IMG/VR virus record: IMGVR_UViG_3300009148_000002
Span: 1 to 64,000 of that record
DNA length: 64,000 nucleotides
From: a virus
Taxonomy: Duplodnaviria > Caudoviricetes
Strand: one strand, 5' to 3'
This document shows, one piece after another, positions 52,363 through 61,343 of the stretch; positions within the stretch are counted from its first letter, which is position 1; every line of letters starts with the position of its first letter. The notes under the pieces were generated by a model that saw nothing but the letters and a program-made list of their open reading frames with translations, did no database searches and was not told the DNA's origin. A program made the position numbers and the translations under genes.

Positions 52363-53871
52363 ATGCCCCTGCATCCCGACGGCTACTGGATACCCAATCT
52401 CTCACCCAAGCAGATAGCCATTCAAAACAACCGAGCGCGTTATCAGTTGGTTTCTGGCCCGCGTTTGAGCGGCAAGTCGTGGGGTGTTGAGCACGCCGTC
52501 GTGAAGCACCTGTGGATTACGAAGAATGCTCGCATGGGCGCGTTCGCTCGCACGATCAAGAGTGCAAAAGTGGGTGGTTCTTACGACGATCTAACAAAGC
52601 TCATCATTCCAGAGTGGCTATCTGCGAATTTAACCGGCGTGAACGCGAGCATCCGCTTCGAGTACTCGATTCCACCAAAACAGATGGGTGATACGCGGAC
52701 GAACTACTTCAAAATACGCAATTATTGGGGCGGCGAATCTGAGTTCTACCTTTTCTCGTTGGATTACGACGACGACATTGAAGAAAAGGTGAAAAACACG
52801 CGGTTCTCCGGCTTCTGGTTTATCGAGCTAACGAACTTCGACAAGCGGGAAGTGTTTTCCGCAACCGTCCAGCAGTTGCGTATGCCTGGATTGCCGTGGA
52901 AAGAGCACCTGTGGATAGCGGACACGAATCCCGACTACATACTCGGAGAGGATAGCTGGATTTACAAGCTGTTCTACGAAAAACAGGGCTACGATCCGGT
53001 GGTGGACAAAGAGGAAATCGAAAATCTGAGCGTCATCGAAGTGATGATTGACGATAACCCGTTCCTTGAGCCACAGGCCATCAGGAGCCTCAAGGCTAAC
53101 TACGCGTACAGCCCGGAAAAGACGGCGGCTTACATCTTTGGCAAGTGGGTTAAGGGAATGCGCGATGGACATTTCTCAGATGTGCTCTTGCCGAACATCC
53201 ATTTTCAAGGTGACGTGAGCAGCAACGATTCAGCGAAGTGGCAAATCATCGTGCCCACAGAGCAGACTATGGAACTAATGACAGGTTGGGACTTGGGCGA
53301 TGTCAACCACTCGGCACACATCGCTCAGAAGCGCCCGATTGATAACGACGAATACGCTTACGATTTCATCGACGAACTGTTCTGCATTGATCGGCAAGTC
53401 AGCATTCGAGAATTCACCGAGGCGTTCTTGGAGCGCATGGATCATTGGGAAAAATTCATGCGCGAGGCGTTTGGGCGAACAGTGTTTCGATGGCGGCACT
53501 GGTCTGACACGTCGGCGTTCAGCTACAAAAGCGCGGTTGGCGGCGATGAAGAAAAGATCGTGCGCAATGTTTCAAAAGGGCGGATCACTCTGTTGGGAAT
53601 CGACAAGCGAAGTGTCACTGGCCGCGTGGATCAAGTGAGACGGCTGCTACACGAGCAGCGCATATTTGTGTCTGCCAACCTAACGCACACAACCGTCATG
53701 CTGAAGACTCTCTACAAAGGCAAAAGCAAGTTGGACTTTATTCTGCCGGCCACGCTGAAGCATTCGTTTGACTCGTTCAGCTACCTGCTTCGCGGCGAGG
53801 AACCTCACGATCTTGAGCGCGGCCTTCCTCAGACGGAGCAGCCGGCGAGGTTGGTGCTGGTGCCGGCGTAA
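52363..53871 (+). CDS. terL: Terminase large subunit
   Basis: Walker A GPRLSGKS, Walker B FWFIELT, coupling motif DTNPD, nuclease GWDLG and KHSFDSFSY. Confidence 0.9.
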   Translation: MPLHPDGYWIPNLSPKQIAIQNNRARYQLVSGPRLSGKSWGVEHAVVKHLWITKNARMGAFARTIKSAKVGGSYDDLTKLIIPEWLSANLTGVNASIRFEYSIPPKQMGDTRTNYFKIRNYWGGESEFYLFSLDYDDDIEEKVKNTRFSGFWFIELTNFDKREVFSATVQQLRMPGLPWKEHLWIADTNPDYILGEDSWIYKLFYEKQGYDPVVDKEEIENLSVIEVMIDDNPFLEPQAIRSLKANYAYSPEKTAAYIFGKWVKGMRDGHFSDVLLPNIHFQGDVSSNDSAKWQIIVPTEQTMELMTGWDLGDVNHSAHIAQKRPIDNDEYAYDFIDELFCIDRQVSIREFTEAFLERMDHWEKFMREAFGRTVFRWRHWSDTSAFSYKSAVGGDEEKIVRNVSKGRITLLGIDKRSVTGRVDQVRRLLHEQRIFVSANLTHTTVMLKTLYKGKSKLDFILPATLKHSFDSFSYLLRGEEPHDLERGLPQTEQPARLVLVPA

Positions 53872-59765: not shown

Positions 59766-59793
59766 TTGACAATCACTGCGGCGTTGATACCTT
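59766..59793 (+). promoter_or_regulatory. sigma70-type promoter with extended -10
   Basis: TTGACA-16-TACCTT with TG at the extended -10 position, 7 nt before ATG 59801. Confidence 0.6.
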
Positions 59794-59800
59794 CGCGTGA

Positions 59801-60088
59801 ATGACAGCAGCCGAAAAGAGAATCGAGATCGCAGAGTTGGATGAATGGGTCAGAGGTTCTGTTGACTCTGTGTGGTGGTCGAAGCTCTGGAAAGACAGTC
59901 TCAGTTACACTCACGCAACGCAGCACGATCTTCCAGACTACCTCAACTCCCGCGACGCGATTGTGCCGGTGCTTGAGAAGCAGCCATTGGGCATCCGCTT
60001 GTGGTTTATCGAGAACACGGACATTTTCACAACGCCCGAAGAACTGTGCGACGCGCTGATTCGTGAAACCGGCAAGTGGAAAGACTAA
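59801..60088 (+). CDS. Hypothetical phage protein (ABA-sandwich-like?)
   Basis: RIEIAEL...LPDYLNSRDAI motif. Confidence 0.5.
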   Translation: MTAAEKRIEIAELDEWVRGSVDSVWWSKLWKDSLSYTHATQHDLPDYLNSRDAIVPVLEKQPLGIRLWFIENTDIFTTPEELCDALIRETGKWKD

Positions 60089-60099
60089 CAAAATGAGAT

Positions 60100-60295
60100 G
60101 TTCTTTGAATGTGAATCGGACGGAGTATTCAACGGCCAGAAATGGCGGTAAACTTTTCCGTGAGTTTGTCACGGACAACAACGGGCTTGCTAGCTACCTG
60201 CCCGTTTGGACAAAGCCAACAAGTTGCGCTGATTCGATTTCAGCGGGGCGGAATTGCTCAGAGGTACGACGAACTCCGATTCACATTCAGCGAAC
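60100..60295 (+). ncRNA. Candidate structured ncRNA, unit 3
   Basis: 21-bp closing stem GTTCTTTGAATGTGAATCGGA / TCCGATTCACATTCAGCGAAC; internal GCCA-GAAA-TGGC, CCGTGA/TCACGG, AACGGGC/GCCCGTT, GCTGA-TTCGATT-TCAGC. Confidence 0.65.
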
Positions 60296-60401
60296 ACCAA
60301 ACAAAATGGTTGACTCCAAAATCAGGTTGGGTATGTTGGTTGCGTTCGGATGCTGGAGTGAAAACCAGCTAACTGTAAGTCTCGAACGTAAGACCACTTT
60401 T

Positions 60402-60468
60402 GGCCGTTCAGTCATGCGAAGCCGCGAGGCTCGCACCGCAGTTAGCGGTTTTTCACGACTGAGCGGCC
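60402..60468 (+). ncRNA. Candidate three-way-junction RNA domain
   Basis: GGCCGTTCAGTC / GACTGAGCGGCC closing two hairpins, one with a GCGA tetraloop. Confidence 0.5.
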
Positions 60469-60628
60469 TTTCCATTTTTAAGGCACCGAACCGTGAAACG
60501 GCTTCATGCCATACGGTCGCCGGAACATGCGCGGCTCCTTCGCGAAGGATGCTGCGGCTAGGGCACGCGAGGAAACAAACATCTCACCGGCCAACGTGGA
60601 AGGAAAACGACAGTGCTTTGAACTGCTG

Positions 60629-60807
60629 GGCCTCGTGGTGCAATGTAAAGACACGGGCTAGTGTAAAGATACGGGTGTCGGCGTGCTGCTGCCCCGGCTT
60701 GCGGACATTTCGCCGCAAGACTCATCGTTGTGATGAGGTTTCCAGCCTGCCAAACGGGACACAACACCGATGCGGCTTGCGAGTTCAAATCCCGCCGAAG
60801 GCCGCCA
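60629..60807 (+). ncRNA. tRNA-like RNA with large structured insertion (not a canonical tRNA)
   Basis: 5' GGCCTCG-TG-GTG...CAC; T-arm GCGAG-TTCAAAT-CCCGC; 3' CGAAGGCC-G-CCA; no 7-nt anticodon loop. Confidence 0.6.
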
Positions 60808-60914
60808 GTTCAGAGCATTGCGGTTTTCCTTTGCTCTCTGACTTCTTTCGATACCCCTACTCTAAGGGGTTGGGGTTTCTTTCTTCTCTCGTTTCGTTTT
60901 AATTATTATCCAGC

Positions 60915-61343
60915 ATGAAGCGCCTGACAAACAAACAACCTATGAAATCCATATACCTAAACGTAAAGAAACAACACATCGACGAGTCAACTAAAAAGGA
61001 CTCGAAACACTGCATGATCGCCGACGCCATTCGTTCGCGATTTGAACAGGCGAAGTACATCAAAGTGGACACGCAATCCATTCGGTTCACTGACTTAAAA
61101 ACCGGCAAGCGTTATCAGTTCTTCACTCCGACGAAAGCACAGGCTGCGATTCTGGCGTTTGATCGCGGCGACGCAGTTAAGCCGTTCCACTTTCAACTTG
61201 TGGACGGCACACAGAGGCCGATGGGTTGGCAGGCAACGCACCCAAATTGTAATCGCAAAGGCAAGAAATACCGCAAGACAGGATTGAAGCGAATCGTGGC
61301 GAAACGCGAACGCGAGTTTGGGCTTAGAATGCTAACCGCGTGA
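60915..61343 (+). CDS. Basic hypothetical protein
   Basis: Clean 142-aa ORF after the ncRNA cluster. Confidence 0.7.
   Translation: MKRLTNKQPMKSIYLNVKKQHIDESTKKDSKHCMIADAIRSRFEQAKYIKVDTQSIRFTDLKTGKRYQFFTPTKAQAAILAFDRGDAVKPFHFQLVDGTQRPMGWQATHPNCNRKGKKYRKTGLKRIVAKREREFGLRMLTA

Follow-up and report, generated by a model that had tools for sequence, protein, structure and literature searches.

A tRNA-like shell at the variable helix tip of a predicted phage RNA of about 550 nt beneath a conserved open reading frame

A stretch of soil phage DNA at positions 60629–60807 has the two ends and the T-arm of a tRNA, with a series of hairpins in the place of the anticodon region. The question raised by this locus is whether such a tRNA-like shell is a free-standing RNA, either a tRNA mimic or a mini-tmRNA-like tagger as in the original prediction, or a part of something larger. 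The source phage is an IMG/VR record of 74,992 bp that is rated complete, and the window analyzed here, to which all coordinates refer unless a contig is named, is its first 64 kb (64,000 nt). The phage is tailed and carries its large terminase gene at 52363–53871. Identical DNA is present as fragments in four DNA runs from soil and rhizosphere metagenomes, and these four runs, being identical in sequence, contain no natural variants for pairing tests. The runs listed as holding the window DNA include no RNA run; the RNA described below, its ends, and its CCA-ended product are predictions. The tRNA-like element sits in an 826-nt stretch (60089–60914) between two plus-strand genes. Over the whole window, ARAGORN called neither tRNAs nor tmRNAs. 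Comparison of the window with the 4,227 models of Rfam 15 gave no hit at the gathering score and nothing relevant around the site at E values up to 10, and when the 826-nt gap was compared by blastn with 50,697 phage records, nothing matched. The ARAGORN and Rfam searches agree with the earlier statement that the element does not qualify as a canonical tRNA or as a tmRNA.

We assigned the parts of the shell on the plus strand from the sequence and its predicted folds. The acceptor-like 5′ strand (60629–60635) pairs with a 3′ strand containing one bulged A (60796–60803), which is followed by G 60804 and CCA 60805–60807. The shell possesses a 7-bp acceptor stem, a base 73, and a CCA in the order found in a tRNA; of this CCA, the final two bases form pairs within the long helix described below. 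The hairpin at the D position (60638–60654) has a 3-bp stem and an 11-nt loop without GG. The T-arm (60779–60795) consists of a 5-bp stem (60779–60783/60791–60795) with one A·C mismatch and a 7-nt loop (60784–60790) that fits the T-loop consensus. The place of the anticodon and variable arms (60655–60778) is occupied by a lineage-specific filling that shows no similarity to the interior of any homologue. This filling comprises a 14-nt direct duplication, with copies at 60644 and 60662, and hairpins at 60698–60719 and 60721–60737, with loops of 8 and 5 nt, respectively, which were found both in the sequence and in the folds. An anticodon arm with a 7-nt loop is absent from the window copy, as is the GG of the D-loop. 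A short internal frame ends in TGA TGA at 60731 and 60734, and the pair corresponding to G3–U70 is absent, the window having C3–G70 and G73. The original prediction had listed the acceptor-like ends with their encoded CCA and bulged A, the D-arm-like start, the T-arm, the duplication, the internal hairpins, the short frame, and the missing G3–U70 pair, and every one of these is present in the sequence.

The 179-nt shell alone folded no better than its shuffles (z 0.05), and 29 T-arm-like hairpins occur on the two strands of the 75-kb genome; a single sequence alone therefore leaves chance as a possible origin. The T-arm and the acceptor 3′ strand are found together at the same tip in four other contigs with covarying stems, which indicates that the shell is not a product of chance. 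Exact searches for the T-arm with the acceptor 3′ strand returned no match in IMG/VR or in the genome collection. We also considered an attP copy of the 3′ end of a host tRNA and rejected it, because the 21-mer covering the T-loop and the acceptor 3′ strand did not occur in the genomes searched, one for each of 185,579 species, and the phage itself carries the corresponding 5′ strand.

The four contigs belong to a larger set of homologues. An exhaustive search with the translation of a 269-codon ORF lying over the element returned 18 patchy "protein" hits, which represented the same DNA called as ORFs in metagenomic phage contigs, and one further locus (L013) was obtained from IMG/VR by a DNA pattern search independent of ORF calls. 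RNA homologues are present in eight other soil-phage contigs (L010, L011, L013, L014, L015, L017, L018, and L020). Their core (window 60488–60622) is 73–87% identical across the eight contigs and occurs in one copy per genome. A 32-nt degenerate pattern of the core matched only L013 in IMG/VR and had no match when one genome was searched for each of 185,579 species. The homologous loci gave no ARAGORN hit and no relevant Rfam hit (seven loci for Rfam, at gathering and permissive thresholds). The consulted passages of a published IMG/VR structured-RNA screen contain no description of this RNA (PMC10690425), and screens of intergenic regions are expected to skip an RNA that is annotated as a gene.

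Self-comparison and a repeat finder revealed an imperfect inverted repeat (60600–60635/60796–60831), of which the acceptor-like helix is the inner end. The tRNA-like shell is carried by the remaining 26-bp helix, which is formed by a 5′ arm at 60600–60625 and a 3′ arm at 60806–60831 on the plus strand and varies between 22 and 26 bp in the family. The final two CCA bases fall within the 3′ arm. At the junction of the long helix and the acceptor-like helix, sequence and manual pairing place 60626–60628 as the 5′ side of an internal loop opposite 60804–60805, and a mismatch or loop occurs at this junction in all five sequences that bear a tRNA-like fold. The long helix is kept in all nine sequences, with compensatory changes at six positions, an invariant 2×2 internal loop, and G·U pairs that are specific to the strand: the conserved G·U pairs correspond to A·C mismatches on the other strand. 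The shell together with the long helix folded with a z of −3.5, and the whole gap with a z of −4.9. An RNA from the minus strand folds about equally well (z −5.3), and was ruled out by the G·U pairs, the promoter, and the direction of the genes. The CCA is located at the foot of a 26-bp helix with its last two bases paired, which contradicts the treatment of the element as an independent unit. The claim of a tRNA-like RNA holds to the extent that a tRNA-derived shell without a usable anticodon arm is present, and it fails in that the shell is not free-standing. The shell is not a discrete RNA gene but the predicted variable tip of a larger conserved RNA.

We then delimited this larger RNA. A promoter-like site on the plus strand (60310–60337; −35 at 60310–60315, 16-nt spacer, −10 at 60332–60337) was identified by a consensus scan and in the homologues; in each of the nine sequences, a sigma-70-like arrangement of −35 and −10 elements separated by 16–18 nt precedes the conserved 5′ end of the RNA by 5–7 nt (by script; L010 by eye). 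Based on the promoter position, the 5′ end of the RNA is predicted to be near 60343. A contig of another rhizosphere run has only a 67-nt promoter piece (60299–60365) in common with the window, with 4 differences and unrelated flanks. The 5′ domain occurs in two types in the family, and that of the window (60343–60487, plus strand, "type A") is shared with L010 and L017. It contains two interleaved helices (60358–60375/60439–60456 and 60402–60413/60457–60468), both of which vary in sequence with the pairing kept in L010 and L017. This conservation supports a genuine pseudoknot, as opposed to two mutually exclusive folds, in the predicted RNA. The 5′ domain is followed by the conserved core (60488–60599, plus strand), in which RNAalifold found compensatory changes in 12 of 31 pairs. 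On the 3′ side of the long helix is a pyrimidine-rich tail (60832–60899, plus strand) with a short G/C hairpin (60854–60857/60866–60869), recognized by alignment to a terminator-bearing sRNA model, and a G-run and T-rich tail resembling those of the window are also kept in the homologues. A consensus scan detected no intrinsic terminator, and the 3′ end of the RNA (about 60895) is approximate. Homologue covariation, which had been proposed at the outset as a check, is present in the stems of the core, the long helix, and the T-stem among nine sequences, some of which are related. The acceptor strands of the five tRNA-like modules were not aligned by MAFFT, and their covariation was obtained from per-sequence folds and manual pairing. 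The best reading of these features is that the region from about 60343 to 60895 specifies a putative structured phage RNA of about 550 nt on the plus strand with its own sigma-70-type promoter.

A separate and very stable stem-enclosed module (60099–60296, z −6.6) lies upstream of the RNA promoter. The module is closed by a 22-bp helix, the base of which resembles the base of the long helix at 60600/60831, and it contains a perfect T-arm-like hairpin (60228–60244). Another contig, L012, carries the upstream module only. The L012 copy is 83% identical, keeps the T-arm-like hairpin via a compensatory change, and lies in a different context, namely a longer promoter-driven RNA.

The conserved parts of the RNA enclose a tip that differs greatly among the relatives. 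The length of the tip between the arms of the long helix is 187 nt in the window, about 150 nt in L013, about 140 nt in L010, about 135 nt in L014, about 130 nt in L017, about 120 nt in L018, about 110 nt in L011, 52 nt in L015, and about 46 nt in L020. Independent single-sequence folds of the window, L010, L011, L013, and L014 gave a common plan: the junction mismatch or loop, an acceptor-like helix of 7–9 bp, a hairpin 2–3 nt further on, lineage-specific hairpins, and, immediately before the acceptor 3′ strand, a T-arm with a 5-bp stem and a 7-nt loop. The stem sequences of the five modules all differ, including those of the acceptor-like 5′ strands, which still pair, while the T-stem is closed by the same G–C pair in all five and the T-loop is identical at positions 1 and 5. 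RNAalifold recovered the T-arm from the five sequences with compensatory changes in 2 of the 5 stem pairs; one relative has a variant T-loop, and L011 has part of the loop sequence of the D-position hairpin in common with the window. The CCA after position 73 is present in the window, L013, and L014, as well as in the deleted form L020, and is absent from L010 and L011. No tRNA-like fold was obtained for L015, L017, and L018. L020, in which the core starts at 418 and the module at about 530, is near-identical to L014 (compared at L014:740–910) and lacks about 89 nt, a loss that begins with the 5′ acceptor strand and takes in the anticodon-like arm; the deleted form was found in contigs from three runs. 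The reading frame is open in both L014 and L020, with 208 and 184 codons, respectively.

For each module, we generated all variants lacking one internal segment and submitted them to ARAGORN. This deletion scan gave 350 tRNA calls for L010, among which Met-CAU was the commonest (206), 507 calls for L014 (Leu-AAG, 251; Met-CAU, 173), and 81 calls without a dominant type for L013. No call was obtained for the window (15,695 single-deletion variants), L011, L015, L017, and L018, and the scan of shuffled controls likewise gave none. Among the five tRNA-like copies, that of the window shows the most erosion, with its acceptor bulge, its A·C mismatch in the T-stem, and a D-loop without GG. Judging from these sequences, the tip is a slot that has held a tRNA-type element, now variously elaborated or eroded according to the phage, and the window copy is an apparent degenerate tRNA "top half" without a usable anticodon arm. 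The original prediction had named a decayed tRNA as its own counter-reading, and this is largely what was found: better copies exist in relatives, one truncation is fresh, and three relatives have no tRNA-like fold. In regards to L010 and L014, their tips combine a CAU anticodon-type loop with G3·U70 and A73, the alanine identity set. These two elements, if charged and used, would be mis-decoding tRNAs, and their insertions of 40–60 nt make a normal function doubtful.

The RNA is surrounded by small early-type genes, and ARAGORN found no tRNA island near it in the window. Within 59766–59803, the end of a strong −35/−10 promoter-like site is separated by about 7 nt from the ATG that starts a 95-aa gene (59801–60088), and the position of the site suggests that the mRNA of this gene may be leaderless or nearly so. 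The gene downstream of the RNA (60915–61343) encodes a 142-aa protein of PHROG 19191, to which PHROG assigns no function. Relatives of this protein with 38–57% identity are present in the soil phage contigs P0003, P0004, and L004–L009. An alignment-based metagenome scan gave the six loci L004–L009, with homologues 38–45% identical, and none of the six has the RNA upstream; the RNA is absent from L003 as well. Judging from the loci that could be read, the RNA and the 142-aa gene are not a fixed pair. Single-sequence searches of IMG/VR with the 142-aa protein or TerL found no close relatives. In L015, an Acb2/Tad1 hairpin-domain gene (L015:2001–2318), belonging to the anti-CBASS/anti-Thoeris sponge family, is located directly upstream of the RNA, which hints at a possible anti-defence neighbourhood.

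We compared the RNA with known systems. To our knowledge, large "ornate" phage RNAs such as GOLLD and ROOL are few, and their functions are still unknown. GOLLD (Rfam RF01998) is a large phage RNA with a linker region that sometimes contains phage tRNAs. The new RNA resembles GOLLD, and more loosely ROOL, as a large and elaborate phage RNA in which a well-conserved part is joined to less conserved parts. It differs from both in that it gives no covariance-model match at E values up to 10 (window and seven homologous loci), is shorter at about 550 nt, is overlain by a conserved open frame, and has no tRNA island near it. It further differs from GOLLD in that the tRNA embedded in it is non-canonical or eroded and is carried on the tip of a conserved helix. 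GOLLD is the closest system in kind, and the new RNA, which its models do not match, is not a member. YrlA (Rfam RF02553) likewise has a long helix formed by distant segments and a tRNA-like domain without a free CCA end. The long helix of YrlA continues from the side of the anticodon stem, whereas that of the new RNA continues from the acceptor stem. YrlA is reportedly also known from phages. We rejected a YrlA or Y RNA, as RF02553 gave no hit at E values up to 10 in the whole phage genome, and the 74,992-bp genome contains no match to TROVE (Ro60) or RtcB genes, a search that covers phage-encoded Ro60 only. The stable RNAs C and D of phage T4 have tRNA-like paired ends with CCA. They are small RNAs of unassigned role made alongside tRNAs (PMC3014915). 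Compared by description, RNAs C and D are free-standing products of a tRNA cluster, while the present element is the tip of a larger conserved RNA. Finally, L010, L013, and L014 resemble tRNAs with insertions (non-canonical introns), since removal of one segment turns them into ARAGORN tRNAs, whereas no single deletion rescues the window copy.

Gene callers place an ORF of 269 codons over the RNA (60093–60902, plus strand), and it is open in all of the homologues with unconstrained amino acids. Between the promoter and the 3′ arm, eight non-redundant homologues (3,750 nt) contain 0 stops in one frame and 56 and 56 in the other two. The stop-free frame is present in all nine sequences, including L013, which was found via DNA and not via an ORF. 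The ORFs abut the neighbouring genes, with a 4-nt overlap with the next gene in L015 and L018. A plain protein-coding gene for 269 aa with incidental RNA features would explain the open frame and its snug fit between the neighbours, and its start context, which has no Shine-Dalgarno site, is like that of other genes of the phage. Such a gene is nevertheless very improbable in view of the remaining parameters. The codon-usage score is negative in all frames, the substitutions are spread evenly over the codon positions (21/23/21), and the pN/pS value of the open frame is 0.87, compared with 0.74 and 0.96 for the two closed frames. AlphaFold2, supplied with a 13-sequence alignment, returned a product with a pLDDT of 46, a pTM of 0.18, and no secondary structure, and the product had no match in PHROG. 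The conservation tracks helices with compensatory changes, and five homologues place the ATG of the ORF within the promoter spacer. The amino acids are apparently not under selection and the ability to be read through apparently is. A picture of the locus as RNA only leaves the always-open frame unaccounted for. Most genes of the phage have A-rich upstream regions without Shine-Dalgarno sites; from this and the always-open frame, we infer that ribosomes pass through the locus. They appear to traverse it in one frame, and this passage may maintain the coupling of the downstream genes or shield the transcript against termination.

We regard a GOLLD-like phage RNA, about 550 nt long and carrying a tRNA-derived module at a helix tip, as the leading explanation, held with a little more belief than doubt and with a proposed role for the module. 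The family would comprise the 5′ domain, the strongly conserved core, the helix of 22–26 bp, and the pyrimidine-rich tail, and the helix tip would serve as a variable slot that was filled by a tRNA-derived element in several lineages. The slot of the window would keep the acceptor helix stacked on the T-arm, the G-CCA, and the D-position hairpin; with hairpins in place of the anticodon and variable regions, this copy would be unable to decode. The retained top half is presumably the part read by RNase P, by 3′ trimming and CCA-adding enzymes, and by T-loop modifiers, and the loop or mismatch at the junction would leave position 73 and the following C unpaired. Because the top half is retained and the junction is unpaired, the module would most likely be cut out of the scaffold at its ends or be used as an attached tRNA-like handle, for which the tRNAs in the GOLLD linker region provide a model of covalent attachment. 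The main competitor, which we consider possible though clearly less probable, is that the module is a relic, that is, the remains of an embedded or inserted tRNA gene that acts at most as helical filling on a scaffold that alone is functional. The tip content is unrelated between lineages and ranges from about 46 to 187 nt, L020 has lost half of the element compared with the near-identical L014 in a form found in three runs, a tRNA-like fold is missing from L015, L017, and L018, and even the deletion scan fails to detect the window copy. The shell alone is moreover no more stable than its shuffles. The dispensability of the tip in L015, L017, L018, and L020 fits a relic and a functional module equally. 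However, five lineages hold one geometry of acceptor helix, D-position hairpin, and abutting T-arm, the closing G–C pair of the T-arm and loop positions 1 and 5 are invariant while the stems covary, and three of the five have the CCA that follows position 73, which plain decay would not be expected to preserve. Processing together with a handle or decoy is placed slightly above the relic.

A decoy or sponge, in which the module mimics a tRNA towards a host factor with affinity for the tops or ends of tRNAs, such as a defence nuclease or a sensor of CCA or uncharged tRNA, would make use of the retained top half and CCA and would suit an RNA among small early-type genes, with an Acb2/Tad1-type gene just upstream in L015. 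We judge this improbable: without an anticodon loop the window copy offers no target for an anticodon nuclease, the CCA is partly paired, the module is absent in related phages, the phage has no Ro60 or RtcB gene, and no partner was found. The mini-tmRNA-like tagger of the original prediction, in which a charged shell would add the short internal frame to stalled proteins, has become hardly credible. The topology is superficially that of the tRNA-like domain of tmRNA, with an acceptor helix on a T-arm, the anticodon arm missing, and the two halves separated by a large insert, and two relatives (L010 and L014) have G3·U70 and A73. Against the tagger, ARAGORN and Rfam gave no tmRNA hit, the window has C3–G70 and G73 in place of G3·U70 and A73, and the shell is internal to a longer RNA and not made by the ends of the transcript. 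The tag frame lies within hairpins and is not conserved, having no counterpart in the homologues, whose interiors are unrelated; tmRNA-type pseudoknots are also absent.

Returning to the embedded-module explanation, a broader version of it, which we hold as a rather unlikely possibility, is a new class of large phage RNAs that would display a tRNA "top half" on a stalk, released or presented to the translation or tRNA-processing machinery, and would also be kept readable by ribosomes with a meaningless peptide. Some lineages of such a class would carry a near-complete tRNA with a CAU anticodon, G3·U70, and A73 on the helical stalk, and translation or its arrest could control the folding of the RNA, or translation could keep the downstream genes coupled in a phage without Shine-Dalgarno sites.

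The shell of the window is best regarded as an eroded member of a series and not as a new tRNA mimic of demonstrated function. Because an ORF is called over the RNA in every genome, the family is hidden from searches of intergenic regions. The always-open frame, the pN/pS value of 0.87, and the unfoldable product would together represent selection for translatability and not for a protein. If the embedded-module explanation is true, the RNA would form a new family beside GOLLD and ROOL in which tRNA-type modules are again embedded, and the link between big phage RNAs and tRNAs would perhaps be general.
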